NCBI GenBank assembly: GCA_000934665.2
Contig: KZ538331.1
Location: 1-64,000, forward strand
Source of the DNA: Catajapyx aquilonaris
Lineage: Eukaryota
Direction of reading: 5' to 3'
Length of the DNA stretch: 64,000 nucleotides
Position numbers and translations under genes: made by a program. Shown one piece after another: positions 1-34,400 of the stretch. Under the pieces are notes generated by a model, which made no database searches, was not told the DNA's origin, and worked only from the letters and a program-made list of their open reading frames with translations. Position 1 is the stretch's first letter, and every line of letters starts with the position of its first letter.

Positions 1-493
1 GGGGGGGTCATAGGGGGTGGGGTCCTTTTCTGCGGCGTTTGCTGCACCTCTGAAATCCACTTTGTCCGCCACTGGTCCCATAAATAAACAAGTACCCTCT
101 ATTCATCTCCCTCGTATACCATTGACAAATCAGTGCATTTTGCATGAAAAATACTGTACGTTACTCCAACAAACTACACACTGCACCAGAACCACACATT
201 GCTTTCTGCGTAGAAGCGCAGACACGCAGTAACCCCGTCACCCCCTGATAATGGGCTCGCTGCAATACAATTGAAGCGCTTTGGATGTCTATGTGCAAGG
301 ATGATGGGAGGAGAGTCCAACTGCTGGGGGGCAGGCAACGACAATATTATTACAACAGTGTCTCTTGTGGCAGGGATAAGAAAGTGATATCCCAGCAAAG
401 GCATCGAGGCCAGGTATAGCCTGCGCCCTCGACCATCGTGAGGCCAATAATCATGCAAAATGAATCGGTCAATTCCGTGCAGGTGGTTCCTAC

Positions 494-872
494 CAGTTGA
501 TCCCTGATTTCGTGCCTCCGCCTGGTGGTGGCCAGGTTGTGTTGGGCCTCCCTCTGCAGCCTTCCAGAAGGGGACGGGGATCGAACAGGGACCGGGATGG
601 AGACCACCACTGGCGCCGGGCTGAGAGGCGCCGCCGCTGCTGGAGAGAGTTGCTGTTGGTGCTGATGCAGGGTGGCCCTGGCCCCCACTAGTAGGTCTGC
701 TGGCCCGGTGCAGCTGGTGCTGCTGCAGCAGCTGCCTGTGGTGGTGGTGTTGTGGGCTGCGGCGGCGGCGCGCTCCAGCGCTTCCAGGCGGCGGCGCAGA
801 CGGACGTTGCTCTCCTCCAGAGCGGTACACCGGGTGTGCTGCTCGCCCACCTGATGCCGCCTCTCCAGTGCC
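494..872 (-). CDS. Internal coding exon of an unidentified coiled-coil protein; the gene runs off the left edge
   Basis: GC-rich open frame ALERRHQVGEQHTRCTALEESNVRLRRRLEALER...RLQREAQHNLATTRRRHEIRDQL between AG (aatag|) and GT (CTG|gtagg). A probable first exon ends at ~1997 (GAG|gtgagg) in a CpG-rich region. Confidence 0.5.
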
Positions 873-1989
873 TATTATACGAGCACCCACGATGTGTACA
901 CATACAGCCCACCCTCCACCAATTAGTACCACACACTCTAACACCCAGCAGCTAGGAACTACCGGATCCACACTGGTCCTGTCTCCTGATGGACTGATGC
1001 AAACAAAGGATCGGGCCCGTCCTTTGTCTGCATCAGTGCAGCAGACCAGGGTGATACCTGCGCTGGCATCACATTTCTAGTCATTCACGCTGGGGCCAGC
1101 GAGTGCATGCAATGCCACTGTGCAGCTAATTGCAATGAAACTAAACTCCAGAAGTCATGGACCGTGAAACGATATCGTCCCACTACTGGCGGGGTTATTT
1201 ATGCAGACGCGAAGTGATCAGAGATAAGGTGCAAATTGTTTCGGGGTTCTATAGTGTGCCATCGATCTGCAGACTGTAACAACACGTACCTACAGGTTTC
1301 CTATCAGTGCAATCAACAGGTTCACAGATAGTCTACGTATATAGGAGGAGGAGACCTACGGGTGCTGCATGCCAGAGTCAAAAATGGTGTACAGGTTGCT
1401 CGCACACCTGGACTTTGTGTAGATGGAGCCCTAATGGGACACTTGCACTGTGTAGCAACAGTTGCGGACAAAACGAGCCAGGGCACCACTTCTGGACGTC
1501 TCTGATGTACAATCACTTTACCGTCACGTAACTACTGAATTAAACGTAATCTGGGGTGCATTCGCGAGGTGTGCTAAATAAATTGTGTTTAGGCATCACA
1601 CACGTGTGTCGGTGTTTTTGTGTAGACACTAACACATTTCTACACTACTGAATCTGAGAGTCCATGCAGTATGAAAAATGTATAGGATGACTGACCCGAG
1701 GTAGACTGGTCTTCATAGTGCAGTAGTAAACGAACAGAGACTGACGGTGCAGGTATAGCCTATAAGAGTTTACATGATGTAATACCGTACGAGTATAGAA
1801 GTGGGGCAGTGACTAGTGACCTATAGGCTGCGGGAAGAGGTCAAGGGCCCGGATGCTGAGGAGTATGCAGCACTGCCCGCCTGCCTGCCTCACTGACTCA
1901 CTGACCCAACTGCCCGCTTCCCTCCCTGCCCTCGAAACAAGGGCACCCGATTGGACCCCAGGGTCCCCCGGGGGCGGCCTCGGGGCCAC

Positions 1990-2400
1990 GGCCTCACCTC
2001 CCCCCTGAGAGGCGGGCTCCTCCGAGCGCCTCCCTCCGTCTCTGGGAGTCGCCGCCGCCGCCGCAGCCTCCCGCACCGCCAAGATGGCGATGCCGACCGC
2101 CCCTTTACACACACCACCCATGCGCCTGCGATTCCGCGCTTCCCGGCGGTGGCAGCTCGCGTCCCAAGCCCGCCATCTTGGATCCTCCGCGATCCCCCCT
2201 AGTCAAATGACAACGCTCCACTTGCGGACCGCACCTTGGATCCAACATGCCAGCAGCCACCACCGCCCTCCAGTACGCAAACCCGTCCGATTTAGCTGTA
2301 TGTGCCGTCCCCATTGATTGAAGGGGAGGGTCTGCCCTGGTGAGAAATCGATAGAGGCGCCGCAAGTCACGTGACGACGGTAGAGCCTCTGCCTATATAN
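1990..2400 (-). promoter_or_regulatory. CpG-rich promoter and first-exon region
   Basis: CpG-rich, with YY1-like AAGATGGCG (~2081) and CGCCATCTT (~2171), palindromic E-box GTCACGTGAC (~2366) and a splice donor near 1996. An assembly gap (N run) lies at 2400-2413. Confidence 0.45.
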
Positions 2401-3704
2401 NNNNNNNNNNNNNATGACCTGCATCCACACCTTCAACCCCCCACCCCCCACCCTATGTACTCTGATGGGGCTATACTTGACACCACCACATCTCAATGTC
2501 CACCTTGAACCTCATTACCTCCGTAGCGATTTGTAAATGGCGCTCCAGCACCAGCCGCTCTTTGTTGGCCAATCGCAGGAGCCGCAAGGCCTCTGACTCC
2601 TTGCTCTCGCGCTCACGGCTCTTCAGGATGCGACTCTTCGTGACGATCTTTGCACCCGCTTCCTTTGACCGCATCACCTGTATAGGATCGTGTTAATTGA
2701 CATGTCCCATCTCCCAAGCCGGAACATGCATGATACAATCTGCCAATCAGATTGCTGTACTGACCTGCCCTTGGACTTTGACCCTAGTCCTGGTGACAGT
2801 CATTTCGGCCTTGATTGGTGCAGGTCGTTGCCTTTGGCGTTGTGTCGGAGGTCGTTCAATTTCGAGCTCCATCCTCATCGTGTCTCGTCTGCTAACCGGC
2901 TGAGGACTTGTGCCTAACCATATTACTGCGATTTGGATGAGGCTTGGGCGCCGGAAGACCCCCGAAGCGCTTGGCCAACCATCTAGAAATTATGTCACGG
3001 GCTATTCGCTACCGCTACATCTCTTGCGAGAAATTTTATGGGCCCGTCTGAATAGCATAACCATAGAGGCACGATGTGGAAATTATTAAAAAATGTTGAG
3101 GTTGCAGCATGGAAATTGCCGGGAGCATGTTATGGTGGGTTGACACCACATATATGCGAGATATGCTATACGCGCTATAATTTTTCGCAGCTTGCTGATT
3201 TGTTGCAATTTAGACTTCCTTTCACCTGATGCCTGGAAGGAAATGACACAGCGTTTCCCACCTGATGTAATTAGCACGGAAACATTAACGTAATTGCACT
3301 TCCCTTTTGATCGCGTCATACTGAGGGCCAAGCACAGTGTGTCAGTAGACTGCAAGAAAGAGGCGCCATTACGGCGCATGGTAATGTGGCTCGGCACCAT
3401 CCATATCTCCCAAGCATTCTTTTTATACTGCGCCATCCCCTCCTTGGAATAGAATTGTGGCTACTTTAAGACCCGCCCGCACTATTATTGTCGTCGCGGA
3501 GAGGTTCTTGTCCCTAACCCAGTGACCTATTTATTGGCGGTTTGTCCCCCTTGCACTGGAGGGCGACACTGCTTCGATCGTGGTCACTCCCTCTCTTATC
3601 GCGATCCCTCTTCAGCTCCCACCCGTCCAGTGGGGTTGCCGATTAGGCGCTGGTGTAGCTCCCAAACCGCCAATTCAAATCTAGTCTAGTCTCCATAAGA
3701 CCAT

Positions 3705-3766
3705 GAGACTTCAAACCTCGCTTCAAACCATCAATCATACTACACAATGCAAACCACTCGGCCACT
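3705..3766 (-). mobile_element. Possible tRNA-derived SINE head (degenerate)
   Basis: Minus strand has an A-box-like GTGGCCGAGTGG followed ~45 nt later by a B-box-like GGTTTGAAGTC. No cloverleaf. Confidence 0.3.
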
Positions 3767-3869
3767 CCAACTTGTAATACTTACTGGCAACGCTTACTTC
3801 CCCGAACATAGTAATGGCCAGATGTATTGATGGGGTCTGCCTTACGTGGAGGAGGATATTCATAGCCAC

Positions 3870-5214
3870 GACAATTTTACTTTCCTTCCTTTTTGGGCAG
3901 CAAAATCACTAATCACACTCTCATTAATCAATTTGATTAGTCAATTCTAGCTCATTTGACAATGTAGGCAAATTACCCAACCTCCAAGTGCTCATAGTGG
4001 AACGTAGATAATTTTTAATTAATTTTAGCTTCAAACAGCTCCTCATACAGCTGGAAACACTAATATTCCGACTTTTAGACAAATCCGCAACAATATGACA
4101 ATATTATTTGGCACTGATATATCTAGACCAGGTCTAGACTAAGCTGTTGAATGAAGTTCAGGAGTTCAAGTGGATTTTCATTCCTTAAATTAAACTTATT
4201 CCAGCTTGTTCCTTTGAAACCGCAATGAAACTATGAAGTCTTTTCCTTTCAATTTCGAACTCTTCCTGGTCAATGTCATCAGGGAGCATATTCTAAATCA
4301 CAATCATATCCGGCATGCAAAAGTCGTGATGGAGTAAGGAAGCCAAATCTTTCAGCCAGTTCAGGAAGCTGGAGAAATCTCACGGTAATCTCTTGAATTA
4401 CCGTAAGTTATTTGAAGGCCTATAAGACGCACCCCCATTTCAGAAGATCATATTCAGGAAAAAATGGTTCGTATTGTATTTTCACATAATTATGAGATGC
4501 AGGGTGATTTTTTGAGCTATTTTTGGGGGAAAGTGCACTTTATACATATGCCGTCAAATACAGTACTCTGGTCAGTGAAAAAAATATTTCCCTCCTGAAT
4601 TCGTCGTCATAGGGTAAGTTGTTCCCAGCGTGGTTCCATAAGGCATAACGATACATAGTTCTTCACACAGTCCTTTAGCATACCTTTAATAGCTCCACCA
4701 TTCAGTAAACAATGAGCACTCATCTTCTGAGCCCATTGTTGTACTGTACTATCAGTTCACCAAGAATTGCCATAGCGGCAGCTCACCAACTACAGTCTAT
4801 GAGCACTTCTCCATTGACTTCTCCCCCCGGAAGTGCTCGTAACTGTAGTTCGTGTGCTGCCGCTGCGACAATTCTTGGTGGACTGATAGTACATGCAATC
4901 CTTTACTTTGTACATAAGTCTGGGCATCATTAATTTCCGCAAGAACAGAATCCTACAAACCCAAAAAGCACAGAAACGAAAACGATTGCAACGCACTGAG
5001 CATTTCTGACCACTTTGTAGCATTTTCATCTGAACTTGTCATCATTCTAATGCATAATCCTTGGGTGTTTATAAATGAAGTAATTGGAAAACATCTTAAT
5101 ATTTGTAGAATCACTAAAATAATCGAGTTCGCTGTAGCTGCAGTATGACAAAAACTGCCGCCCCCTTCAACTTGCCGCCTGAGGCGGCCCACCCCCCGCC
5201 TCGCTACGCCACTG
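3870..5214 (-). mobile_element. Decayed hAT DNA transposon
   Basis: Minus strand ~4065-3873 translates to SVSSCMRSCLKLKLIKNYLRSTMSTWRLGNLPTLSNELELTNQID*..ESVISDFAAQKGRKVKL, matching the hAT C-terminal dimerisation motif (S.ERSFS.LKLIK.YLRSTM...RL), with a stop and frameshift. hAT-like terminus CAGTGGCGTAGC at 5214-5203. Confidence 0.7.
4400..4564. mobile_element. Tc1/mariner-pogo-type MITE nested in the hAT remnant
   Basis: Degenerate termini TACCGTA..TATAAGACGCAC ... GTGCACTTTATA..AAATACAGTA with TA flanks. Confidence 0.5.
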
Positions 5215-5947
5215 GATACTGACCCTTAATATTTGTCTTGTGGACAGTCCAATTTATCTTCAACAGATGATCAAGTCAGTATTAACATATTTTGCAATAA
5301 AATATGCTCAAAATAAACACAAGTGTATAAAACAAAAATAACGATCTGCCAAAAAAAAAAAAAAACACCAACTGTACAGAAAAAAACTATTCTTCATAGA
5401 AATAAAAAATGTATGTATCTAGGAAAATTTTCCCGTAGCAATTTATATACAGTCAACATCTTAGTCAACATATTATACAAGTTTACAAAGCCCATTCAAT
5501 AGCTTGTAGAATAGTAAACTTGCCTAACTTACCCTAACCTTTCCATTAGAACAATTGAAGGGTTTGACTATGAAACATGTCCACCCGTTTTTGTTAAATT
5601 CACTTTTTACCATCAGATGACGGATCATAATATGAACTGTTAAGCCAACATACTGTATGGCAGTAATGCAAAGAAATCTTTCTGTTAAGCAGCGGCATCA
5701 GCAGTTTCAGGTCAAAAATGCCAACCTACAAAATCGTGGCCAACCGTGCTCTAAAAGAATTGAGACTGTTTTCTTCAGATAATATGCATTTTTCAGAAGA
5801 TGTTGATGCTGTGGAAACTCCAAGTGAGTCAAGTGCCACTTTGCACTTCCCTTCGCATCTATCCCTTGGCTTCATTCATTATATACCTAAGTGGTGCAAA
5901 ATTAAACTAATTTTGCCTTTGCCTGACTGTCTTTCTTGGCCTCTAGT

Positions 5948-8900
5948 CTATGTGGTCCACTGGCGTATCCTCATGTTTAAATAGTACTTAACAGCTAAAG
6001 TCATAGTGTCCATTTTATGAATATCACATGAAAAGCTGAGGTCACATGTATCCAGAACCTCTTCTACGGTCCTTTCATATGCATCTGGCTGACTGCAGTA
6101 CTTGGCAAAGCATGTCTCTACTGACCTGATGAAATTAAACAACTGAATATGAGGATGAATCAACTTTCCATGGCTCTTGAGGTTGAAAAGCTGTGCAGCA
6201 ATCTGCTGGGAACATGTCAAGGTTGATATGAAAGCAGATCTACACCTGTCACATTTTGAGTACTTGGAGATCTGCTTTGCCAAATATCCCGTAATGTAAA
6301 ATATTGCACATTCCACAACAGGAGCACAGGTGTAATCATGTTCCACTATGTCAGAGAACTCACACTCCTTTGTGTCGACAATGAATGTTAATTTTTCCTT
6401 CAAGGCTTCAACAGCTGATGGTTTAGGAGTGCCCTGGGAGAAGATTTCCAGTATGAGACTTCTTTTCAAAGGTGGCTCTGTTGGTGTGTCGTCATTTGTG
6501 GTGCAGTTTCCACACTTTGGTGGTTTAAGCAAACTGTGAACGGACAGAAGCTTATAGAGCTGCAGAAATGTTGGCGTAGCTGGATGATCATTTGAGCCCT
6601 CTGCCAGCCTCACTGTTCCAAAGCATCTCTGTAACAGACACGATTTATGCTCAAGACTAAGGATGGCACTAAATTGCTTGTCTTACCTCGAGAGCATCCT
6701 GATTAATCCTGCCACTTGGAAGATGATTAAACCCAAACTTGTGTTTCAGGTACCAGCATATTCCAATGGTCGATTGCAAAGTTACTCGCAGACCTTCTGC
6801 AGTACTCGAAGACAAGAATTGGCCTGGAAGTATCTGGCCTTCCTGCAGTCCCTTCTCCCAGTCATTGAGCCACTGCAGAGTACTTTTCAATACCTGCGGT
6901 TATGAGAGATCGTCAAACATGCACGTACTACATGTCATGAAGTGCAGCAATGATTATGTTGCATTAGGGTGAAAAATTAAAATCACAAACCTTGTAATCT
7001 GTGCTGCCTGGCGTAACTCCTTCACGTAGTACTTTCCGGTTTAGTGAATCAAAAGCAAAATTCATTACCCGGCAAAGGTTAACTGTCCCTAGACAGTCAT
7101 CCAGACTCCTCACTCCTTGGGCTGCATAAAATTCGAGTCCTTCAGCAACAGATTTGCTGAATATCTGTAGTACAGGGAAGTAAATGTAGATTACATATGT
7201 ATATGAGGGGCATTCATGAAGTTCATATCTTTGGGTTGTAACAAAAGAGAGATACGGTTCAAATTGCACATATGCATTAGTACTTCTCTCTATAGTCTAT
7301 AACCTGCAAGGCCACACATTTTTCCCTGCAATGCACGATGATGCACAACCTGTTGGACCCTGTCATTGTAGAAGTTGACACTTCATGCTTGAAAAAAGTT
7401 TTCAACCCGTTTCCCATGGTGGGGGGTACTTGTGTTTCTCCCATGACTCCAAAAGCTTGAGATAGCATTCCAATAAACGAAGCTACCACCAGCATAGCTC
7501 TTCAGGGTCACAGGAGAAACACAAGCCCCACCACCATCAGATATCGAAAACTTTTTTCAAGCATAAGTGTTGACTTCTACAATGACGGTCTTGTGCATCG
7601 TCATGCATTGCAGGGAAAAATGTGCGGCTTTGCAGGGTTCATATAGAGAGAAGGACTAATACATGTGAGCAATTTGAACAGTTTTTCTCTCTTCCTTCAA
7701 CCCAAAAGTACAAACTTTATGAATGCCCCTCGTATAGGCTACAGTATGTCTTATACACTGCAAAACGTGCGTAATAAATGCACTTTTTGGCAAGTTCAGG
7801 AATTGTTCTCTGGGAGGGCTACATGGCCACCACATGACTTACACAATACTGTTCACTTACCTGTGTGGCAAGATGAATTCTCATTTTTGTACTGCTGCTG
7901 CTAAGGACCACGTGATTCAAGGTTATTCTGGGACACACTTGCATGTCAGCAGGAAGCAATCGGTCCTGTTCATGTAATGTGACTAAGTGCTGCCATTTTG
8001 CAGGAGTTGAGTTGGGGTGAACCTATATTTCAATTATGACTTGTGAGACACCATGGTACAGGATGTTGCATTCAGAAATAACTTACGACAAGTTCTTGTT
8101 CCTGATAGAGGCGGTCTCTCACACTCTTCACCAGGGATGGAGTGTCAAAAAATACGAAAATGCACCTCTTTGGATCCATGGGATGCTCAAATGAGTTGTT
8201 CAATTCATCAGACCCAGGGTGTTGCAGCTTACCACTGATTCCAAGCAAAGACCACACCTCGTGGTCTGTTTGGGCTCCACCCGATACAAGTCCATGAATC
8301 TTTGCACCACTTTTTTCCAGGAAAGTTATGGCCTTTATGATGATTTGGGCCAAGGCAGTCCCTTTCACTGGTCCTTTGGAGGCGAACATGCCTATAGCCT
8401 GTGTGTATTGCGCTGCAAGCGGCTGAAACATGAACACAAGGGCATGTGTGGCCCTTTCCGCCATGTCTGTTCCCTGAACATCCCCCTCACCAAAATCTAG
8501 GAGCCCCTTGTACGTTAATGTGCGGGAACACACAGACGGACTTTCACGAACAGACACCTCATCAAAAAGAATAACTCCATGTCTCTGCATGTCTGGTTTT
8601 TGGTCCAGGTATTTCTTGAACATATCAAAAAAATTAGGGTCAAAACCACAAGGAGTTTTGATCATGGCTAAATATCTGTGAATGGTTCTCAGGCAAGGCA
8701 AAGGCAGGCTTTGATTATCTCGTAGGGAGTTGTATGAGGAGGGAGATCTGATATGCAGCAGAAGGCAGAGTAGAATCCAGTCTTCTGTGTACTGCCTTCC
8801 ATTAGCATCTTGGACCTTTGAAGCTGCTACAATTTCTGCTACTGTGGTTCGTTCATGGGATGCCAACTGGGCAAGCATATCGTCTACAGACTTGTCATTC

Positions 8901-11900
8901 ATAGCAGCCATCTCCAGTTGTGTTTTGCAAACTTCTTCCTGCAGCCATGTCACTTTCATTTGTACTCGTAGCTTGCCTGCCTGATATATGAGCATGTGTG
9001 TCCTAAGTGACCGCAACTCTGTTTTCCTTCTTGGTGTGAGAGCGGAACGTTTTTGTTGAGGACCTGACACAGTTCTTTCCACCTGCAGAATATTTGCAAG
9101 TTCAGTCTTCCTTATGCTTTTGCAGCTGACACACATTCTGTCATGATCTACAACCAGGTTGCAGTCCTTGTGCCGTATATACCCAAGGCAGTCTTTGAAT
9201 GCTGATTCAGTACATCCTGTGTCGGCAAGATCTGCACGCAACATAGTACTTTCACAAACTTTGGCTCTGTCGAATTCAAATATTAAGTCTTCCAAGTGCT
9301 GCAAGGATTGAAGCCTGTCATGGGGTATGCGTAACTTTTCTATGTCTAGTGGAATACCCACAACACTACATTTTATTATTCCATTTTCATCAACAGATAT
9401 GCTCTTATGGAAAGCAGGTGCAATATGATGATTCCCATCTCTTTCACTGACCAACTGAGAATAGCACACCATTAGAGGACCTGCCGCTGGGACCACGCGG
9501 TTCCAGTAGGGAGGAAGTGTAACAGTTTCAGAGTTTTTGTAGAGGTTCATTAATGTCTTGAAGTCTTTCACTGCACATTTTGAATTCTCTTCTGCCACTG
9601 CCTCTTGTCCCACACTGGGAGAATCTTGAGAAGGGGACGCAAGGGTGGAAAACACAATATCTTGGCCCGAGTTGTCAGCACATGTTTGTTCTTCACTGTC
9701 TGATGTGTGATGTGGCACTGACAATGCTGCAGTATTACTTGGAGGATGGTCAGACTGAATTGATGGCTGGGTAATCCTGCCATTACCAGATGTTTCATGG
9801 CATGGCAATGCTGTAGGATCATTTGGGGGATGGGTAGGTTGGATTGATGGTTTGATATACCCCTTGCGGCCTGGCAATTTGTCATGATAAATAATGACAC
9901 CACTATGTGCTGGTCCATTCACATACGCGTGATCAAGTAAGTGTGGTGTCATTACTTGGCTGCTGTCTGGTTGCGTATCAAGGGGGTAACCACTTCGTGG
10001 AACTGGTGTACAGGGTTCCTGTGGAACCAGGCCGGAACCAGCTTGAAACTGGACTGCCCACCTGGTTCCAGGAACAGGTGTACACTCTTTTGGGGAGTTG
10101 TAACCCCCTTGTCGCTTATTGTTCTTGCCAGATGATACCGTGGTATTACAACGCTCAAGCTGTAGATGGGGCACAGCACCACGTTTCAGTCGAGGACGGA
10201 GGAGAGTAATCTGGTGGGAAAAATTATAACCATATTAAAATGAGTGTACTGTAAACATGCAGGGACATCCTTACCAATGAAATTACCAATAATTTACTTC
10301 CAAATAAAAAAGCTCACTTTTCCATTTCCTGACACCCATTATGAATTTTTTCTGGAAAAGACAAAGAGTTCTGCTATAATACTGTATACACTGTATACTG
10401 TATAATAATATCTAGAGAAACGACTGCCTATCCTTTCCCCGGCTGAGGCAGACTTGGGTCAAGATCAATTGTTGACACTATATACTTCTAGCATCTCCAT
10501 AGAAATGTGAAAGGTGAGATCAAAGAAATGACATTTATGACCTGTGAAAAGACACTGATGTGCCCTTTTCCACCCTGGACTTGCACTTGAAGGTGCAATA
10601 GTGGTTTGGAATGGTCGTAACAATTTTCTTGAGTGCTGATCTGGAACCAAACTACTGGTTTTGGCTAGATAGCCTCTCTAGTTTGGGCGGTAAGGATGCA
10701 GTTTAGTGTTGAGCCCCGCAAAACTCTTGCAGATTTCTATATATTTTCTGAATCTACTCGATGAGCTGAGTCAAATGACATTATTCCGAGTGTGCGGAAA
10801 TGTTTGGTTCAAGAGTAATTTAATTTTGAAATTGCAAGTAATAACAATGAATAAATGAAAATGAACAAGTGTTCCTTTGTTGGAACAGTCTACTCCCATT
10901 GTTGAGTGAAGGCATATCCATGGTAATTTTAAATGAAATTTGGGGGTTGTGTGTTCGCAGTGTTCGCAGCATTACTGCCCGCCTTGTGGCAGTGTAGATG
11001 GGGGTGTTGCGTGATGAGGCTGTGGCAAAGCCACAATAACGTCGTTGGCCTGCGGTGGTAAATGTTGCGGATTCAAAACTCACAATAAGCACCCAGCTCC
11101 GCTTCGCTCCGCATTAACCAAAATTTTCATGCATGGGCGACGTACCGTGCCTGGCAGGGCCACAAGATGGACAGTACTGGTGCGATCACTCCAACGCCTC
11201 ACAGATAACACCAACACAATCAGTGTGGGGCATTCATTGAGTAATAAAAAAGGCTTAGGATGCATTTTACTGCACACTTGTTGGCGGGCAAGATGGGAGC
11301 AGTGGCCCACTAGACACCATCCTCCCTCCTTACTTCTAGGAAGGCTGGCCCCAAGGCTTACCCAATTCCAGATATGCACTGATATGCCTCGGCCATGAAT
11401 GCTCCTGAATGATGTTAAATTAAACTCATGCACTCTCGTTCTATATCCACCGAACCAAGAACAACCGCGTTTATTTACATCATTCAGCATCCCTCACAGC
11501 ACATTGCCATGGTAACTATGACGTTTCCACAGAGAATCACCTCACGCAGCAATGGGAGTGAACAGTTTCAACAAAGGAATACTTGTTTACTTTCATTTAA
11601 TTCATTGTTATTACTTGCGATTTCAAAATTCAATTACTCTTGAACCAAACATTTCCGCACACTAGGAATAGTGTCATTCGACTCAGCTCATCCAGTTTAT
11701 TCAAGAAATACACAGAAACCTGCAAGATTTTTGCAGGGCTAAACTGCACTGAAGCCGTTTTAGCTCCGTACTTCTGAGTCTAAACATTATGACAGTTGTC
11801 CAGCAACTGGGACAACAATTCAGACTAACACTACCCAAGTATAGACTCTTACTTCGACCCAATTAGTCCAATAATGTCAAGCGTCCGCCATCTTTACTAG

Positions 11901-11950
11901 TGTAATATTGTTTGCCTGCCAGAGTTTTCACCTCGAGTGCTCTCTCTAGG

Positions 11951-11982
<32 letters not shown>

Positions 11983-13375
11983 CAGAACTCTTTGCTTCGA
12001 CCTTACGTCATCGTTTCTTACATAGTTCTTTTTTATTGACACTGTTTACTCATATTGTTGTGTGAGGGCATTTCCATGGAAAGCTTCAAAACAAAACGAT
12101 GACGTAAGGTCGAAGTAAGGGCGGGCCACCTCTAAAGATGGTGGCCTGCCTCACACATCACCCCTAGTTATTTCTCTGGGTTCGGGAGAAGAAGGTGATA
12201 ACCCTCAAATGGGTCGTAATTGAGTTATCACCTTCTTCTCCTGAACCCTATTGTAATCTTGTTATAGCAGAACTCTTTGGGAATAGACCTCCCTTCTGTC
12301 ATCCCATGGCAGATGGCATCACACAGAAACACACATCTGATAATGCACTTAGCTAGAATTATTCTATACTATTGACACTGCTCTGCTGTCAGATGTAAGA
12401 AGACTGTAACTCAAACACTAGTATGTGTGAAAGTCGCATCCATGCCCTGCACTGACTCAGAGGGGATTAGTGCAGGGCATGCATGCGACTTTCACCCTTA
12501 CTAGTTTTTGAGATACGGTACGATATTCTTACATCTGACGGTAGTGCTTACTCCTTTTGCTGCATGATGGAAATTTATAAAGTGACAGGTTCCCTATAAA
12601 GCCCGCTCCACACTGGCGGAGTTTCTCCGATGGGGATTTTTCCGTATGAGAAACTCAGCCAGTGTGGAGCGCGTCTCCGATCCAGTTTGTGACGTCACCA
12701 TGCGGATTTGAAATTTCAGCCGATTTTCTATTTTCTCCAATGGAGTCGGGCTGGATTTTTTTGTACGAGAAACTCAGCCAGTGTGGAGCGGGCTTAACAG
12801 AAGGGATGGCTATTATAGAAAAATTCATAGTGGGTATCAAGAAACATAAGAATGGTACCTAAAAAATAATAATAATTAAAAAATTATTGCTTTCTGATGT
12901 CAAACTTTGTGAGCATTTTTTAATGAAGAGATTTTTTAAACTACGTCACATTAATATATTGAAGTGGAATTATTTATTATAGCACATTTGACTGAGGCTT
13001 AAATGGACTATGGCATCACATTTTCATTGATTAACGAGCAGATCACCTGGCTTAGCCCGGGAGTGTATACATCCCAACATTTTGTTAATTACGCCCCACA
13101 ACTCCACTTATTATTTTGGTGTACGGCTTGTACATTTACCAAATGGCCCAAATACTAACCTCGGCCACAACCACCCCTTCATCATTCCGGAAAACGTTTT
13201 TCCTTTGAATGTCCTCCTCCTGAAAGTGTATTTGGCACACACGATGGTTTGCCTTCAACTGTATCCCGGGCGGCATCACATCCTGCCAATGTTGACGTCT
13301 CTCAGGATCGGAAGGCACAAGGAAGCAGGACATGCCAGACTTTTGACACCTGCACACTACACAGTATATCGACAT
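5948..13375 (-). CDS. THAP-domain, P-element transposase-derived protein (THAP9-like), 6 exons, ~1187 aa, probably catalytically inactive
   Basis: Exons 13375-13160, 10210-8087, 8022-7861, 7164-6991, 6893-6687, 6628-5948; all GT-AG, all phase 0, no internal stops. THAP signature CVVCRC..P..W..CQIHF|..RPRLKRGAVP. P-transposase motifs SPSSYNSLR..LPLPCLRTI, LFDEV, HALVFM, KMRIHLATQ, NQDALERCFG..R..GSNDHP. Confidence 0.88.
7202..7734. mobile_element. Tc1/mariner-type foldback MITE in intron 3 of the THAP gene
   Basis: TATGAGGGGCATTCATGAAGTT ... AACTTTATGAATGCCCCTCGTA, ~200-bp imperfect inverted arms, TA flanks. Confidence 0.75.
9979..10111. mobile_element. 133-bp MITE (CAAGGGGG termini, 8-bp TSD) inserted in frame in THAP-gene exon 2
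   Basis: CAAGGGGGTAACCACT ... AGTTGTAACCCCCTTG; flanks TTGCGTAT/TCGCTTAT; sister copy at 16070-16169. Confidence 0.75.
10362..12279. mobile_element. Non-autonomous P/hAT-type element (TIR CAAAGAGTTCTGCTATAA, 8-bp TSD) with nested inserts
   Basis: Perfect 18-bp TIRs at 10362 and 12279; flanks GGAAAAGA/GGAATAGA. Confidence 0.75.
10697..11748. mobile_element. Long-TIR foldback element
   Basis: ~200-bp imperfect inverted repeats (~10700-10910 vs ~11535-11748), including GATGAGCTGAGTC/GACTCAGCTCATC. Confidence 0.7.
12386..12541. mobile_element. Palindromic MITE
   Basis: GTCAGATGTAAGA...GAAAGTCGCATCCATGCCCTGCACT / AGTGCAGGGCATGCATGCGACTTTC...TCTTACATCTGAC. Confidence 0.65.
12600..12794. mobile_element. 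PIF/Harbinger (Tourist-like) MITE
   Basis: TIR AGCCCGCTCCACACTGGC ... GCCAGTGTGGAGCGGGCT with TAA on both flanks. Confidence 0.8.
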
Positions 13376-13794
13376 GATCCTTATTTCAAACGCTGCCGGG
13401 GCCACAGCACGTCGGCATCCGTTCTGGTTCTACGCCAAGTGCTTGTAACGTCTACTAAGGGCAGAATCCAAGGGCAGAACCACCATGGGCAGAATCTCTT
13501 CTGCAGAATCGTGCTCCATCTCGCTTTGTCGCAGTCGTTTGTTTCTCAGAGTATGGCTTGGACGGCGCCATTTTTGATCCGATTATAATCATAAAAATTA
13601 CAAACTTAACACGACTGATGAGCATGTTTTTTGGTACAGTACATATAAACTGAATCATTATAACGATTTATTATACTCTCTTATAGAGCAGTAAGCTGCT
13701 TCATAAATATTCCAGAAGGATATGGGCAGGGTTGAAAATGTCTGCTAGTGTGTCCATACTCCTTAGCACTTATTGAGGAAAAGGAGCAGAAGCT
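13376..13794. promoter_or_regulatory. Bidirectional promoter shared by the THAP gene and ACADS
   Basis: The two ATGs are 420 bp apart, head-to-head; YY1-like GCGCCATTTT at ~13565. Confidence 0.6.
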
Positions 13795-15456
13795 ATGGCC
13801 GCTTTGGGGAGACAAGTGTTTCGTCGGCTGCTCTGCAAAAGTAATTGTAAATAATGGTGAAGATTAGAGGATAATTCGCACGAGACGTGGCTGGTGAAGG
13901 ACAGCCAGAGATACATTAATTCTTCTGTTTACAATGAATGTCCTTATCACAGTTGATCCTGAAATGTTAGCTTTGGACCCAATGAACTTGAGCGGAGTTG
14001 TTCTTATGTTAATTACTTTCAGCACATGTTAGCAGCTCTTGGGCACCAACCATCCAGCGTAAAGCTAGTGTTCTTGCTGCCCTGCCTGAAACGCATGAGC
14101 TCTTGCGCAAGACATGTCGAGACTTTGCAGAGGGAGAGTTGAAGCCCATAGCTGCCCAACTGGACCGGGAGGAAACCTTCCCGTTGGAGCAGGTGCGCAA
14201 GATGGGCCAGCTAGGCCTCATGGCTGTCACACTACCTGAGAAGTATGGTGGAGCTGGATTAGACTATCTTGCCTATGCCATAGTTATGGAGGAGATTTCA
14301 AGAGGATGTGCCTCGACTGGTGTCGTTCTTAGCGTTAATAACTCCCTCTACCTGGGTCCCCTAAAATCATTTGCTAACGAGAAGCAGAAGGAAGAATTTG
14401 TAGTTCCTTATACAAGTGGAGAACGAGTGGGATGTTTTGCTCTTTCTGAACCGGGTAATTAGGCAATGTTGGCGAGACAAGCAACCAGAGTGTAAGAGTC
14501 ATGCGATGCCTTACATTGCAGGAAACGGCAGTGATGCAGGGGCTGCTTTGACAACTGCCAGTGAGGCTGGAGATCATTGGGTTCTCAATGGGACTAAAGC
14601 ATGGATCACCAATGGTTACGAGGCTGAAGCTGCCATTTTGTTTGCCACGACTGATCGTTCCAAAAAGCACAAGGGAATATCTGCTTTCATTATGCCAAAA
14701 CCCACTAAAGGTAACTGTTACCATTCATCATTATTTCTGAGAGCTAATGAGTCCAATTTCAGGTCTCTCACTGGGCAAAAAGGAGGATAAGCTGGGGATT
14801 CGGGCCTCTTCGACATGCAACCTGATAATGGAGGATTGCCAGATCCCAAAGGAGAACCTGTTGGGTCAACCTGGCATGGGATTCAAAATAGCCATGATGA
14901 CCCTAGGTGAGTCCAACCAGTGCTGTAAGCGACACATGCTCTAATGCCCATCCCGTTGGCAGATGAAGGCAGAATTGGAATAGCTGGCCAAGCACTTGGA
15001 ATAGCTCAGGCTGCACTGGATTGTGCCATTGACTACGCGCACAAGCGACAAGCCTTTGGTTCACCGATTCTAAAGATGCAAACCATCCAGTCCAAATTGG
15101 CTGATATGGCCATGAGAATAGAAAGCTCCAGGCTTCTCACATGGAAGGCTGCCTCACTCAAAGATGCTGGGAAACCCTTCTCTAAGGTTAGATTAGTACT
15201 GCAAAGATGAGGAGGACAACCACTACCCAGCTGTTTATTTCAGGAAGCAGCAATGGCGAAGCTCTCTGCATCAGAAACTGCAACATTTGCTGCCCACCAG
15301 GCAATCCAGATACTAGGGGGTATGGGATACGTCAAAGACATGCCTGCCGAGCGTCACTACAGAGATGCCAGAATCACTGAAATATACGAGGGAACCTCTG
15401 AGATACAACGGCTGGTTATTGCGGGACAATTGATCAAAGAATATGGACTAAACTAA
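13795..15456 (+). CDS. ACADS: Short-chain specific acyl-CoA dehydrogenase, mitochondrial
   Basis: Basic presequence [15 protein letters not shown]. Spliced exons give [100 protein letters not shown]. Confidence 0.95.
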
Positions 15457-22325: not shown

Positions 22326-25300
22326 TTAACCGTGAAGAATGTTGTCGTAGGATTGGTACACGCCAGGAGCAACGTCCATTGCACGTGACTTGAGGGAGAG
22401 CTGAAATTTAAAACATGTTAAATTATGTGTGGTATGCCTTGCCATTCTCATTCAAAAGACCCATGTTGTTGCATATACAAGCACGTGAGCTGTAAATATA
22501 GGGTTCAACAATCCACTCACTTTGGCAAAAGGACATTGGAATCTGGAAATTTTGGTGAAGCTTTGGAATGTATGTTGAACCCAATGCAAAGAGTAGTGTA
22601 AAGGATGCAACAACTATCCATGCAAACCGAGAATGGCAGTGACTTCACAAGTCTTTCGTTAGTTACATTGTTGGCCATTGTGATGTCACTAATATGCTCT
22701 TGTTGAATCAATAATACTTACAGTGAAGTTGGGATTTCCTGGCTGTATCTTGAGTTCTGCCAATACCCAAATTCCATTTGTAAGTTTCAATGATTGGTAC
22801 AGCATGTCCTGTCCTTCCACATTCCTTTTTGCAATTGTGAAGACATTGTTGTTCTGCATGCGGTTGACAACCTCATCTGCAAAACACATTAGTGCTCAAT
22901 AAACCCCCTTTCCATACAATATTACAAGCAAGTAGTACCCAATTGGCTCCATAATGATAAAAAAGGGATGTATAAAGTGTCCCTTACCAGTAAGTGATCC
23001 ACCTGGTGGGACAATCACATTAGCAATGTTATATTGGATCTCGTTCTGTGCTGGAATGTCCTTCCATGTGGCCAAAAATATCCGCTTGTCCATCTGCCCA
23101 TCTTCCACAAAGAAGACGTGCATGGGAACAAGGCAGGCAAAATAGAAGACATCCACATTGTTCTTGATGGCCACCTGAAGGTTGGTCAGTGGCTCCATAC
23201 GCTGGACTGGGCCAGTGGTGGACACCTGCAGAGCTGACTCTGTGTTCTGGTTGGCTGGAAGTGGACTAGGTACTTGCAGGGGTGCAGCAGGGGCCAGTCC
23301 AAAACTGTTCTTGTTCAGCTGGACTGCAAATCCCATCATTGGCTGCATAGCTTTATTGTGGAATGTCATTTCCATTTGGATTTGGCCACCTCTGAAAAAT
23401 CAGAATGAAAGAAACATTAATACTAATAACGGATCAACAATATTAACTAGCAGCAGGTGTGACATACTTTCTTGAGAATGTCCCAGAGATTTCCAGTCCT
23501 TTTCCCTTGGATGCTGGTAGCCATATCTGCTTAGGTGGTGTATATCCCGTAGCACTAGGTGTCAGTCCAAAAATATCGCCTAGTAGTCCTGTGGTTGTAG
23601 AAGATGGTGCAGGTGCAGCTGCAGCACCAGCGTCGCCACTCAGCTGGAAGAATTTTTAAAATTCAGGACTTCACCCACTAAACAAGTCTTACCATGTTTG
23701 TGAAGGAGAAATGTTTCTGACTTCAATATTGTTTCCTTTCATTTGTACATACTGCATGGCCAGGGAGTGTTCGCTCTCCCTCTCTTCCAAAATCCAGGCA
23801 ATTCTATTCTCAATTTTTTGACCAGTATTATTAATGCGTGCATTGGAGCCACCTTATTGCAGATTCTCACCTTGGATAACATTCTCAGTTCCCCCATCTT
23901 TGCCCCTTCAGACAAACACTTACTTTCCCATAATCAAGAATAGCATAGCTCAGAGGAAGGCATGCCAGTACAGCACTCCACTGGCCATGAAGTATTCAAG
24001 CTCAATGTTTTCATGGGATATGTAAGGAAATGCTAGTTTAGCTAAGTAATTACAAGGTTGTCAAGGCCTCCTCCAAGTAGATCCATGGCATTGGTTGAGT
24101 ATGAAGGTGCTGCTGGTTGCGCTGCAGCTGGTGGGTTGAGGTCCATGCTGAGGAGGTCCCCAATAAGGGAATCTTGGGATGGAATAACTGAGGGCTGCTC
24201 TCCACTCCCACCAGCAGCAGCTGCATCCGCCAGCCCCTCTTGAGATCCTGCTCTGGCAGGTAGTGCCTTCCTGAGCCCTCCAGTCCTCCCTTCCACGAAA
24301 GCAGATGGTGGCTTGTGATACACTGAAGCCAGGCTGGCAATGTGGCAGATCAGTTCATCCAAAAGAGTGGGTTCAATGAGGTCAGTCTCCTCTGAAATCA
24401 GAGGCTTCTCTGCCAAGACCACCTCTTTAGCAGCAGCAGGATCTGTTGACAAAAGACGCCAGTAGATGAATCCTCGGTCTCGGAGGTCAGGATTGTCTGA
24501 GTCCTGGGTGGCAAGGCTTAGCACCTGCAAAAAAATGCAAATTAGGGTCACATCCAAACGACATAAATTGCGATTTTTAACATACCTGCTGGACCAATTC
24601 CTGTGTGTTTGATGGACGCTTGAGGAACAGCTTTACGATGGCTGTTAGGAGCTGCAGCTGTACTTGGGTGTTCTCATCATGGAATCCCTCCAGAAATGAC
24701 TCCAACAGCTCATCTGCATTGTCAATTCTTTCTGCATACTCTCCAATGATCCAGATCATGGATGCTCTTGCCTCAGGCTCATCCAATGTGTCCAGATTCT
24801 CACACAGGGTAGATATGATGCTCTCGTATTTGTTGGGGTACTTTCGGAAGATGTCCTTAATTACAACAATGGCTTCCTGGACCACATAGTTCACTTTAGT
24901 CTGGATGAGATCCAGCAATGTAGACACACACCGTTCAGCAGACTGCTCAACTTTTATGGCGCACCTGCCAATAGCACGTACAGCTTTGCGGACAAAGTCA
25001 ACATCAACTTCAGTGGCATACTCCTTGAGCTCTGACAACACTTGTGCAATATTGGCTTGTGATGCCAGACGAATCATGATGTCCAGCTTCTCCAGTTTCA
25101 CATAAATGGGATCATTGTACTTGACAAAAAATACCTTCATCTCTTGCTTGAGGATATCAGGTCGCTTCTGGACTATAAGATTGATGTTGCGTAATGCAAC
25201 GTATTGCACCTCAGGCTCAGATGATAACAATGTGACCAGTGGGGGAGCAAGCTTCTTGGTCAGAGTGGACACAAAGTCTGAATCCGACGGAAGCATCTCC

Positions 25301-26595
25301 ATAAATTTCATCAAAACTTTGACAGCAGAGAGGACAACAGCTGCGTTGGCATGTGCCAGACGTGGTGTAATCCTCTCACAGATGCTTTGTGCCTCACGAT
25401 CATCCTTTGGTGCATAATTAGCTAGTGAATCCAAAATAAACACTTGCCCCCACTCTGTGCACTCATTGAGAGCAGTCAAGAGCTTGTTTATGGTCTGAGC
25501 ATTCATTTCCACCAGGGGCTGGCCACTTGGACTGGCATCATTGATTTCAGAAAGGGCAGCAACAGCATTGGCTACAACCATGGGGTTGGAGTCACTCAGC
25601 AGGTCCTTCAGCTGGTCCAAAAATCCCTGGTCTTCCACAAGCTGGGCATTGATATCATAAAGCTTAGCCACACAAACTGCTGCTGTCTTACGCACATAGG
25701 GGTCCTCATCCTTGAGACACTTGCGAAGGGGCTCGCACAGGTACTCTGTGATTTTGTCAACCCTAATGCATCCCATGGTGCGTACAGCCAAAGCACGGAT
25801 CAATGGATTTGGATCCTCACAGTCCTAAAAAGAAAATTCAAATTCATAAACCATCACAAAGATGTAACACGACATCAATCTGCAGTTTGTTACAAGTAAA
25901 ACTGAGAAATTACTGCTGGTGCTGCTCAAATATCAGTAGAAATGAATGAAAACTTGTGTTTCTCAACCAGGCATACAATCGACAGTAACCTAATGTGTAA
26001 AGGATGTGCACTTCCTGTTAGACTCAAGTTCCTCTCTCCATTCTAGATAAAATTGCTCTAGTTTACTTTGGTAACTTCAGTTCCACTATGGAAGCAATGG
26101 ATTGTTAATTTCTGTAATGCTATGAGACATTATACCACCCGGCATAATTACAAGCATAAATATGGACTGTTTTATGCAACACTGTCAAACACTTCCACAG
26201 GTGGACTTTTAATAAATTAAAAATCTGCTCCATTTGAGCTCCAGTGACCTTGACAAAGGTGTTGACAGCCATGATGGCCATATCCGGCTGACTCTTGGCG
26301 TAGTTCATCAAGTACAGGTAAACCAGCTTCTTGAGCTCCAAGTTGTCTGTCTGCATGCAGTTGACGACATCAGGGAAGAGTGCCGACACATCCTTCCCCA
26401 CAGTCATGGATGCAATCACCTGTTAAAAGCAACGGGCAGTTCAGACGACGCACAGGAAAGAGAGCAAGATCATTGTCGTCGTCCCACCTTCTTGACAGCC
26501 TCCCTCTTCTTCTCCTTCTTGTCACTGTTGAGCTCAGACTTGAGTTCGAATATCTCTCCCTTCTTGGTGGTGGTGAAGTACTTGGAGTCCGTCAT
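22326..26595 (-). CDS. AP1B1/AP2B1 (Bap): AP-1/AP-2 complex beta adaptin
   Basis: [22 protein letters not shown]...; trunk [29 protein letters not shown]; hinge DLLGGGLD; ear domain ending [24 protein letters not shown]. Confidence 0.97.
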
Positions 26596-31433: not shown

Positions 31434-34400
31434 ATGATGGAGAACACACTGCAGGATCGGGACCAGGAAGGAGTTGAGGACTTTGTGTTGCTGGAGGATT
31501 TCCAGAGCGAGGAGGCCTTCCTGGATAACCTGGAGAAGAGGTTCAAGAGGGACAGGATATACGTGAGTGTTGATCATTGGATAAGGTAGGAGTATGAGTA
31601 ATTTGTGATTGTTGGCAGACATACATCGGACCTGTGTTGGTGTCGGTCAATCCGTACAAAACGCTGTCGATCTATGGAGACGCTATGGTGGAAAAGTACA
31701 CGAACATCAACTATTATGAAGCGTCACCTCATTTGTAAGTTAGGTGTCCGAAAAATTCGATGGACATTTCTAAGGATGGTGTACTTATGTTTTTAGATAC
31801 GCCATTGTGGACACAGCGTACAGGGCCATACGTAAGGAAGAAAGGGACCAGTGCATCCTAATTTCGGGTGAGTCTGGTGCTGGTAAAACAGAAGCGTCGA
31901 AGAAGGTCCTGGAGTATGTGGCTGCTGCTGCGAGACATACATCTAAAGTGGATAGGGTCAAAGAACGTCTGCTTAGGTCGAATCCGGTACTTGAAGCCTT
32001 TGGAAATGCACGAACCACCAGAAATGACAATTCCTCCAGGTTCGGAAAATACATGGACATCGAGTTCAACTTTATGGTGAATATCCACATACTGTACAGT
32101 GTACATGGTTGCTGGAGAAAGATTAATTTATTGCAAAATAAGGCAGTGAACATTTTAATTTTCCCTTGTTAATCTTACCCTTCTCCAAAAAAAATAGGGT
32201 GATCCAACTGGAGGACACATCTTGAACTTCCTGCTGGAGAAAGCAAGGGTAGTTCAGCATGCACCAGGAGAGAGGAATTTTCACATATTTTACCAGCTAC
32301 TGGCTGCTGGAGATGATGAATTGTTGGAATCATTGGGTCTTGTCAGAGATCTCTCCAAGTATCGTTACTTGCAGGTATGTCATTTTTTTTTTCCTTAGTT
32401 GATAGCAGAAACAAAAGGAATGGCATGCAATCAAAATTGTTGTTCTGTTGCCAATCCTAAGCGTGCCCATATTTCAATGCCCTCTCATGCATTTTAGCTC
32501 ACACATGCATCACTCACATTCCCAATTATTGTATCAACCTACAAGTTATTATTGAAAGTGAGTTCTCATGATCAAAATATTCCAATACCAGAGTGAAGAG
32601 GCAAAATCCAAAAAAGCAGAATGGTCATCATCCGACTCAACACAGTTTGAATCAGTATGCAATGCTCTGGAAGTCCTGAGCATGGGGGATGATGAGCGAT
32701 CTGCGTTGTTTATTCTGGTGGCTGCAGTCCTTCATCTTGGAAATGCTACATTCAAGCCAATAGATGATGATTCTTGCCAACTGGAGTCCACTGAATCAGT
32801 GTCCCAAGCAGCCACCCTACTGGGCTGTCCTGAAGATCAGCTATCTGAGGCACTGACTCGCCGCACCATAGAAGCCCGGGGAGACTCAGTGACGACACCA
32901 TTAAATGCTGACCAAGCTGCATATGCTAGAGATGCACTGGCAAAGGCTATGTATGAACGCCTCTTCACATGGTTGGTGCGCTGGCTCAACACCTCCCTGC
33001 ATTCGGGTAGCGACCAAGTTGGACGTCGCACACTGCTTGGAATCCTTGACATATATGGTTTTGAGATATTGCACTTGAACAGTTTTGAGCAGTTTTGCAT
33101 CAACTTTTGTAATGAACGCCTCCACCAGCTGTTCGTGGAGCTGACCTTGCGTTCAGAGCAAGAGGAGTACAGGCGTGAGGAGATACAATGGGAAGAGGTG
33201 AAGTTTTTTGATAATCAGATTATATGTGACCTCATCGAAGAGAAACAGAAGGGTATGATCCCACTACTGGATGAAGAGTGTACCCGCCCAGGGGAACCAA
33301 CTGACCTCACTTTCCTGGAGAAGTTGGATCGAGGTGTGGGGTCACATCCGCACTACGACAGTTACGCAAGTGGTGATCGCAAGGCAAGAAAAAGTCTGGG
33401 CAGTAATGAGTTCAGGGTGGTGCATTATGCAGGGGAGGTAACTTACAATGTTGCTGGCTTCCTGGATAAGAACAACGATTTGCTATTCTATGATCTTCGA
33501 AAAGCGATGGTTTGCACAACCAATTTCATCACAAAGGTAAGTTCACATGTGACCTTCGTGCACTACATGACTTTTTACTACTCACTGCTCACTTTTTCAG
33601 GCAATGTTCCCTGCGTGTGACCTAGACAGCAAGCGTCGCCCAGTTACGGTGGCATCCCAATTCCGCCAGAGTGTGTCGCAACTGATGACCACCTTACGGA
33701 GCAAGGAGCCCTCGTACATTCGCTGCATCAAGCCCAATGACCACAAGAGCCCAAACCAGTTCAACATTGACGTCATCCGCCACCAAGTGCGGTATCTTGG
33801 CCTCATGGAAAACCTCCGTGTGAGAAGGGCTGGGTTTGCATATCGGCGACCATATGATACATTCTTGGCACGATATAAGAGCCTATGTCCTTACACATGG
33901 CCAAAATACGAAGGAGAACCACGAGATGGTGTTGACCTTTTAGTGAAGCACATAGGTTATGGCCCGGATGACTACAGAATGGGAAAGACCAAGATTTTCA
34001 TCAGACATGCACGAACCCTGTTCAAAACAGAGGATGCTTTCCAGAAGAGAAAAGAGGAATTGGCTGCCATCATACAGAGCACATGGAAAGGGGTTGTACA
34101 GAGGAGAGCTTACTTGCGAATTAAGGTAGCAGCCTTGTTGGTACAGAAGCTCATTCGGGGCTTCCTGGCCAGGAGGAGGGCAGCCAAGAGGCGTAAGGCA
34201 TTGCAGGTGCTACAAGGATTCATGGCTGGCTATGCAACAAGGAACAATGGATCAGACACTGATGCCAACAAGGTGTTTCTAAATCTGGCACGTTGCTACT
34301 TCCTGGAGAGATTGGCACGGAACATGCCAAGGAATATACTAGACAAGAGCTGGCCACCTGCTCCTGTGCACTCCAAGGAGGTGAGTATCAATAAAATCTG

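Follow-up and report, generated by a model that had tools for sequence, protein, structure and literature searches.

A full-length P-transposase-derived gene with a disrupted active-site signature in Catajapyx aquilonaris

Introduction

Has the P-transposase-like gene that lies head-to-head with the ACADS gene of Catajapyx aquilonaris passed from transposon to host, and has it given up catalysis on the way? The gene occupies positions 13375 to 5948, minus strand, of a 64,000-nucleotide stretch of DNA (GenBank assembly GCA_000934665.2, contig KZ538331.1, positions 1 to 64,000), referred to here as the window. An earlier note, made from the sequence letters alone, had described it as a candidate domesticated, THAP9-like gene that kept its binding and oligomerisation domains and lost catalysis. 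The present analysis favours a closely related reading, which we place only slightly above an even chance: the gene would be an immobilised, catalytically crippled member of the P superfamily, kept in the host by selection and acting through DNA binding.

Vertebrate THAP9 and the Drosophila neogenes are established cases of P-transposase domestication; hosts have recruited these proteins several times, and the roles of the recruited proteins are still unclear. The Drosophila P transposase is a protein of 751 amino acids encoded by a gene with three introns. The Drosophila P neogenes keep the THAP part, have lost transposition and are thought to act via DNA binding or repression. The P repressors known as 66 kDa and KP are reported likewise to keep the THAP DNA-binding part, to be incapable of transposition and to repress or bind DNA (PMC7776569). 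Neogenes and repressors lack the C-terminal third of the transposase, whereas the protein described here is full length and has suffered point losses in the active site. A literature search, which was not exhaustive, found no account, for arthropods, of a full-length P-derived gene that is catalytically dead. What is new here is a full-length, intron-bearing P-derived copy of the arthropod type, with some modest extra interest in the fact that it has a paralogue.

Results

An intact gene for a P-transposase-like protein

The gene model was rebuilt from the sequence. Six exons and five introns join into a frame of 1187 amino acids with zero internal stops, in agreement with the earlier description of an uninterrupted THAP and P-transposase frame. 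All five introns run from GT to AG and lie in phase 0, each exon length is divisible by 3, and all ten splice-site dinucleotides are intact. The start codon (ATG, 13375-13373) is the first ATG downstream of an in-frame stop; the frame closes with TAG at 5950-5948. The predicted protein comprises, in order, a THAP domain, a coiled coil, the N-terminal half of an RNase H-like domain, a GTP-binding insertion, the C-terminal half of the RNase H-like domain and a C-terminal domain.

Exon 1 (13160-13375, 72 codons) encodes the N-terminal part of the THAP C2CH zinc finger (PF05485, E 3e-7 on this exon), with residues C5, C8, C46 and H49. The AVPHL that ends the domain lies beyond intron 1 (10211-13159, 2949 nt), in exon 2 (8087-10210, 708 codons), which continues with a Pro/Ser-rich linker, a Cys/His motif, the coiled coil, a weak helix-turn-helix (HTH) and the N-terminal half of the RNase H domain. 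Intron 2 (8023-8086, 64 nt) is followed by exon 3 (7861-8022, 54 codons), where the GTP-binding insertion starts, intron 3 (7165-7860, 696 nt) and exon 4 (6991-7164, 58 codons), where the insertion includes D873, the kept equivalent of Drosophila D444. Intron 4 (6894-6990, 97 nt) leads to exon 5 (6687-6893, 69 codons), whose last codon is that of the catalytic Glu, E961; intron 5 (6629-6686, 58 nt) begins immediately after it, and exon 6 (5948-6628, 226 codons and TAG) supplies the RNase H C-terminal part and a conserved C-terminal domain.

Pfam searches of the exon translations matched TNP-like RNaseH_N in exon 2, the GTP-binding domain (GBD) in exon 4 and RNaseH_C in exon 6, outlining an RNase H-like domain split by a GTP-binding insertion (PF21787, 3.5e-27; PF21788, 3.8e-9; PF21789, 1.8e-4). 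The PF21789 value falls short of the Pfam cut-off, the domain being split across exons. Matches to an HTH and to the 87-kDa C-terminal domain were weak and appeared at relaxed Pfam thresholds only. Relatives confirm continuity at four of the five exon junctions, with LATQ/IFSKSVA, DYK/VLKS and QDALE/RCFG (slashes marking the splice points) gapless against tick proteins and against L001, the closest relative found (see below). The Drosophila melanogaster P transposase (6p5a / 6pe2) shows the same order of domains (THAP, coiled coil, HTH and an RNase H fold into which a GTP-binding domain is inserted) and likewise has introns; by comparison, the window protein is longer (1187 residues), has five introns and carries a linker of ~200 amino acids with a Cys/His motif after the THAP domain.

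The codon usage of the gene resembles that of its neighbours (G+C content at third codon positions 0.43 vs 0.46; correlation of relative synonymous codon usage r 0.73 vs 0.63 host-to-host), a match that would suit a host gene and an aged transposon copy alike. The small-share sequencing run X5 yielded low-depth contigs only, none of which bridges an intron. No AATAAA was found on the minus strand in 3536-5947; variant signals were not searched, so this result is uninformative.

Four residues of the active-site signature are replaced

Residues were mapped by profile alignment to the Drosophila P transposase (6p5a, whose chain numbering is the published one) and to 71 homologues, namely those that span model residues 541-785 out of 160 proteins, partially covering ones being excluded. 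A search with the single sequence matched 6p5a at E 1.3e-5, aligning FDEV with FDEM (D230) and DTPSLVKSVRD with DTPHLIKLVRN (D339..H342..N349). With a 29-sequence profile the match reached E 2.7e-46, and the family motif VsDGAstN fell on Drosophila VSDLGTGN (D303..N308). The profile alignment pairs D303, N308, D339-H342 and N349 of the Drosophila enzyme with G716, D721, D761-S764 and D771 of the window protein. The Drosophila triad is reported to consist of D230, D303 and E531, with D339 forming part of the D(2)H motif (PMC8230255, PMC7776569), that is, the [C/D](2)H motif after the second Asp as defined in PMC8230255.

Two residues of the triad are present, as the earlier note had claimed: the first Asp, D622 in LFDEV (8561-8563; Asp in 66 of 69 homologues), and the Glu, E961 in NQDALE (6687-6689), which corresponds to E531 by the family alignment (QDxLE). 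The equivalents of D339 and D444 are also kept. The triad is nevertheless incomplete: the position of the second Asp (D303) is occupied by Gly 716 (GGT, 8279-8281), where 67 of the 71 homologues have Asp. The D(2)H motif is incomplete too, reading D-T-P-S (D761 to S764, 8135-8146) with Ser in place of a His found in 66/71. Both replacements had been proposed before; the alignment to Drosophila P and the homologues bears them out, and no alignment shift rescues either position. To these, two N-to-D changes in the signature must now be added. D721 (8264-8266) stands at the position of Drosophila N308, which is Asn in all 71 homologues, and D771 (8114-8116) at that of N349, Asn in 66/71.

With the canonical active site lost in this way, the usual two-metal cutting and joining of DNA would most likely be lost as well, because D303C by itself is reported to leave ~10% of activity in Drosophila (PMC8230255). 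According to the same report, D230C and E531Q also bring excision down to ~10%, and D339C lowers it. One could imagine instead a transposase or nuclease still at work with a non-canonical active site, Asp 721 or some other acidic residue having taken over metal binding. Such an enzyme could draw on the first Asp, the Glu, D761 and the D444 equivalent, all kept, and on a new Asp five residues from the lost one; this Asp 721 would have arisen before Asp 716 was lost, because it is found in both genomic copies of the gene (see below). A precedent comes from human THAP9, which is reported active with a Lys superposed on the first catalytic Asp (bioRxiv 10.64898/2026.09.03.748810), so that calling inactivity from sequence can fail. 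Yet each Drosophila triad mutant is already reduced to about a tenth by one substitution, whereas here Gly is accompanied by three further signature changes. Moreover, Asp occurs at position 721 in 0 of 71 homologues, and no transposon ends that could serve as substrate were found at the locus. On balance we judge a working non-canonical enzyme highly improbable.

Positions that define the fold are preserved

In the N-terminal half of the RNase H domain, 30 columns are at least 85% conserved among the 71 homologues. The window protein differs at four of them, each within the active-site signature. Among the homologues the median number of changed columns is one, with six homologues exceeding four. 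Of the 30 columns conserved to the same degree in residues 776-1187, 26 are kept and the other four carry conservative changes (K>R, V>I, F>L, V>L); the equivalents of D444, D958/E961 and F964 in this C-terminal half are kept as well. Overall, 52 of the 60 columns are unchanged and all four non-conservative changes fall in the active-site signature. The chance of four out of four changes hitting the 12 signature columns among the 30 is 0.018, a post hoc and rough figure that is only indicative. The pattern is one of fold-defining positions preserved and chemistry, as far as alignment can tell, removed.

This distribution bears on a second alternative, namely that the gene is a dead relic, left by a low-copy P-like transposon with introns that inserted near the ACADS promoter, its ends now unrecognisable through decay, its frame still open as the copy is fairly young, and without a function for the host. 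A relic would hardly be expected to confine its non-conservative changes to the signature, or to show 0 stops and frameshifts in 1187 codons together with ten intact splice-site dinucleotides. On the other hand, scattered signature losses are also present in other homologues, e.g. P0033, P0031, P0034 and P0132. The first of these (P0033, 876 aa) is changed at 12 of the 30 conserved columns, including the equivalents of the first Asp, D761 and N771, and is possibly an independent inactivated or domesticated member of the family. Taking these points with those given below, we consider the relic unlikely, though worth serious attention.

A second copy retains part of the signature

Public DNA contigs of the same organism (runs X1 and X2) were mapped onto positions 5800-13800; these are contigs and not reads, and contigs drop variants. 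The unique flanks have a depth of ~25-30 in X1 and ~21-26 in X2 with zero variants, and a single form only is seen there, including in a 4.4-kb contig across the promoter and ACADS. Over 8234-8339, however, a second contig of equal depth is present (24.9 of 52.5 in X1; 23.1 of 43.8 in X2) and differs from the window at 8 sites. We infer that the second form is a paralogue and not an allele, because each form stands at full single-locus depth (~25-30, not half) and the flanks lack a second form. Allelic variation as its source was rejected on the full depth of each form and on a synonymous difference of ~16%, far above allelic levels. The gene is thus a member of a small family with at least two copies in this genome; no further copy was found within the 64-kb window.

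Translation of the other form gives Asp at 716 (GAT), Asn at 771 and, as in the window, Asp at 721, with no difference at Ser 764. For D721 and S764 no alternative was present in any mapped contig. The window letters over 8234-8339, with the Gly codon, are themselves at single-locus depth in both runs (27.6 and 20.7, calculated as total depth minus that of the other form), so that Gly 716 is not an assembly error. Over 8087-8120 the sole contig form, in both runs, differs from the window at 5 sites and has Asn at 771. This is seen although X1 and X2 contain 91-93% of the sampled words of the stretch: the only letters recovered across these 34 nt are non-window ones. Contig bubble popping, gene conversion between the copies or an assembly mosaic are possible causes.

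The last of these leads to a further alternative, in which exon 2 of the window would be an assembly mosaic of two paralogues, or contain errors. The coexistence of two forms in the sequencing data lends it some weight, as does the form found at 8087-8120. The depth of the Gly codon letters and the uniformity of D721 and S764 argue the other way; contigs drop variants, so that the window letters have not been shown to be absent at 8087-8120, and a mosaic would shuffle residues between copies without removing the existence of a Gly-716 copy. We therefore regard an artefact of this kind as very unlikely.

Within codons 696-780 the copies show 9 synonymous and 4 nonsynonymous differences (9/13 synonymous), two more nonsynonymous differences being present in X2 only. 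This corresponds to pS 0.16 and pN 0.02 (ratio 0.13; binomial P = 4e-4 vs 22% expected) and indicates coding constraint on the P-derived gene, as judged from the alignment of the two forms. At half that neutral divergence, ~12 new stops would be expected in an unselected frame of 3561 nt. Divergence that is mainly synonymous speaks against the relic described above. So do the two signature losses common to both copies, which would be unlikely in an active master lineage given an Asn invariant in 71/71.

The window copy keeps every structural hallmark and has lost four signature residues; the sister copy stands half-way. Together they would form a natural series in which to see which functions (DNA binding, oligomerisation, GTP binding) outlast catalysis. 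A more elaborate scheme builds on this: a paralogue pair in the course of stepwise active-site loss, with the dead full-length copy serving as dominant-negative partner or targeting subunit of the other copy, or with Asp 721 as a migrated metal ligand that sustains a non-canonical nuclease. We hold this scheme to be quite unlikely. In its first version, the dead copy would be comparable to the P-element repressor proteins, but full length.

Relatives and shared intron positions

The search for named homologues used a query restricted to residues 430-708, the first 500 residues being non-conserved. The best matches were ant and tick proteins with 41-52% identity, and 0 of the 11 matches were from vertebrates. 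The label "THAP9-like" is apt as a description, but vertebrate THAP9 is not among the nearest named relatives and nothing shows orthology with it. THAP9 resembles the window gene in being a P-derived gene without transposon ends (in amniotes), none having been detected here either; it differs in that at least two copies exist in the present genome, and in that human THAP9 and zebrafish zfTHAP9/Pdre2 are described as still excising DNA (PMC8230255; PMC10983969). THAP9 is also reported to lie head-to-head with another transcription unit, THAP9-AS1 (PMC9326536). A further resemblance is that non-mammalian THAP9 orthologues are reported to have a replaced second Asp (D374; PMC10824691). Three tick proteins (P0006-P0008) have the same full architecture as the window protein. 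A large protein library contained 2486 relatives at E <=1e-3, all entries being unnamed.

A locus search with a 9-sequence alignment retrieved one locus, L001, a 29-sequence alignment being too diverse for the purpose. L001 is a metagenome contig of 3160 nt (coding part 1-2175), 52-60% identical to the window protein, and is its sister in a 32-sequence FastTree tree whose support values were not inspected. Unlike the window protein, L001 and the arthropod homologues P0001-P0009 carry the canonical D..N / D(2)H / N signature; L001 has the canonical D/N/H/N residues and shares the GAQT motif after the second Asp position. Its introns match those of the window gene at all four checkable positions (introns 2 to 5). 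In addition, the open frame of 43 of the 71 homologues stops no more than 40 residues past the end of exon 2, as expected if intron 2 were widespread.

L001 also has one in-frame stop in its exon-6 equivalent (KPP-stop-FGNC). Having the same introns, canonical catalytic residues and this single stop, it looks like a decaying transposon copy and so speaks for the relic, as does the existence of at least one more copy in the genome.

Signs of mobility and the ACADS promoter

No pair of terminal inverted repeats (TIRs) and target-site duplications (TSDs) enclosing the gene was found by a repeat search of the window. A 13-mer scan of 3000-5948 against 13376-13800 yielded 19 pairs with at least 11/13 matches, none of them with a TSD of 6/8 or better; five shuffles gave 11-21 such pairs. 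In these searches the gene differs from the Drosophila P element, with its TIRs and 8-bp TSD, and the earlier statement that no such pair is present is upheld. Similarity to the second copy at >=95% ends at the coding region, depth bins 5800-6066 and 13276-13800 being at baseline. The lack of ends and this confinement to coding sequence are further points against a relic.

The start codons of the P-derived gene (13375) and of ACADS (13795, plus strand) are 420 bp apart head-to-head, as read by eye and as claimed before. The spacer of 419 nt (13376-13794) may act as a shared promoter. ACADS exon 1 spans 13795-13840 with its donor GT at 13841, and exon 2 begins at 14023; the dehydrogenase domains (Acyl-CoA_dh_N/M/1) lie at 14013-15207. 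The matches to the ACADS protein are mainly arthropod sequences at 65-75% identity, none of them closely related, in keeping with an arthropod-like host.

A proposed history and the evidence that tells against it

Taken together, the results suggest that a THAP and RNase H-fold transposon gene was immobilised and then retained by selection as an intact, spliceable frame of 1187 codons. Decay of the active site would have been stepwise and would have followed immobilisation: both copies have N721D and H764S, and the window copy alone has D716G and, probably, N771D. The parts still at work may be the THAP domain, which would bind specific DNA sequences, the coiled coil, through which the protein would self-associate, and a folded but inert transposase body. 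The protein could then serve as a DNA-binding regulator, or repress its paralogue or elements related to it; the earlier note had suggested a transcription regulator or a repressor of nearby MITE families with 8-bp TSDs as possible roles. The earlier proposal of a domesticated gene with binding and oligomerisation kept and catalysis lost is sustained in so far as the domains and nearly all structural positions are kept and two catalytic-motif residues replaced. On two points it finds no support: with another copy at full depth in the same organism the gene cannot be called single copy, and its introns cannot serve as a mark of a host gene.

Several observations weigh against host retention, in addition to the THAP9 precedent mentioned above. 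The introns are a trait of the family, because four of their positions are common to L001. The head-to-head arrangement with ACADS is ambiguous, because P elements are reported to prefer promoter-proximal insertion (PMC7776569), which would suit a relic too. A caution of wider use follows: domestication should not be read from introns, an adjoining housekeeping promoter and missing TIRs alone. The branch leading to the window lineage is about twice that of L001 (0.42 vs 0.20, FastTree, support not inspected), which fits relaxed constraint, and hence a relic, as well as it fits a change of function. Asp 716 and Asn 771 survive in the second copy, so that catalysis may not be lost throughout the family. 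Among the letters of 8087-8120 not seen in the X1 and X2 contigs is the D771 codon, though their absence is not shown. The pN/pS estimate covers 85 codons, and the contig variants behind it may stem from several copies. An active transposon lineage can likewise build up divergence rich in synonymous changes before it inserts, so that such divergence is no proof of host-level selection here.

Repeats and other features of the window

Introns 1 and 3 were said in the earlier note to be full of transposable elements, and contig depth agrees: both contain high-copy repeats, with summed depths of 800-5600 and 468, respectively, against ~25-30 in the unique flanks. These repeats are later insertions. 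Intron 3 carries a 537-nt element (7200-7736) with inverted arms of 95 nt, 82% complementary. In intron 1, a 1037-nt unit (10708-11744) has inverted arms of 203 nt (87%), at 10708-10909 and 11542-11744. Both are high-copy by contig depth. No other copy of the intronic repeats exists inside the window, and inspection by eye revealed no obvious 8-bp duplication next to the inverted repeats as delimited by the repeat search.

Exon 2 displays two peculiarities. Between the THAP domain and the coiled coil, at ~8900-9070 (residues ~381-436), the family consensus includes a Cys/His pattern (C.G ... RH..C.L ... C..C) for which there is no Pfam model; the window protein retains the RH..C and C..C, and a second zinc module may be present. 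In the linker, at 9977-10064, contigs occur at full depth with an in-frame skip of 51 nt (10012 to 10064) and with a go-back of 55 nt. No tandem repeats were found by TRF in 9300-10210. A 36-nt stretch (9981-10016) recurs in other contigs, and the bin 9805-10071 has a depth of 233 vs ~30. The linker looks like it holds a short, repeated, length-variable coding piece.

Positions 1-4000 of the window are G+C-rich (0.52-0.54 vs ~0.43 elsewhere) and contain long open frames without a Pfam match, e.g. 177-1076 on the minus strand (300 aa). The genes of the window are ACADS and those for PITP, beta-adaptin, a G-patch protein, myosin I, a metallophosphoesterase, Rad9 and an SH3 protein. The interval 14013-56290 is compact and gene-dense with very large exons, such as a 415-aa adaptin exon (24580-25824) and a 352-aa myosin exon (32562-33617).

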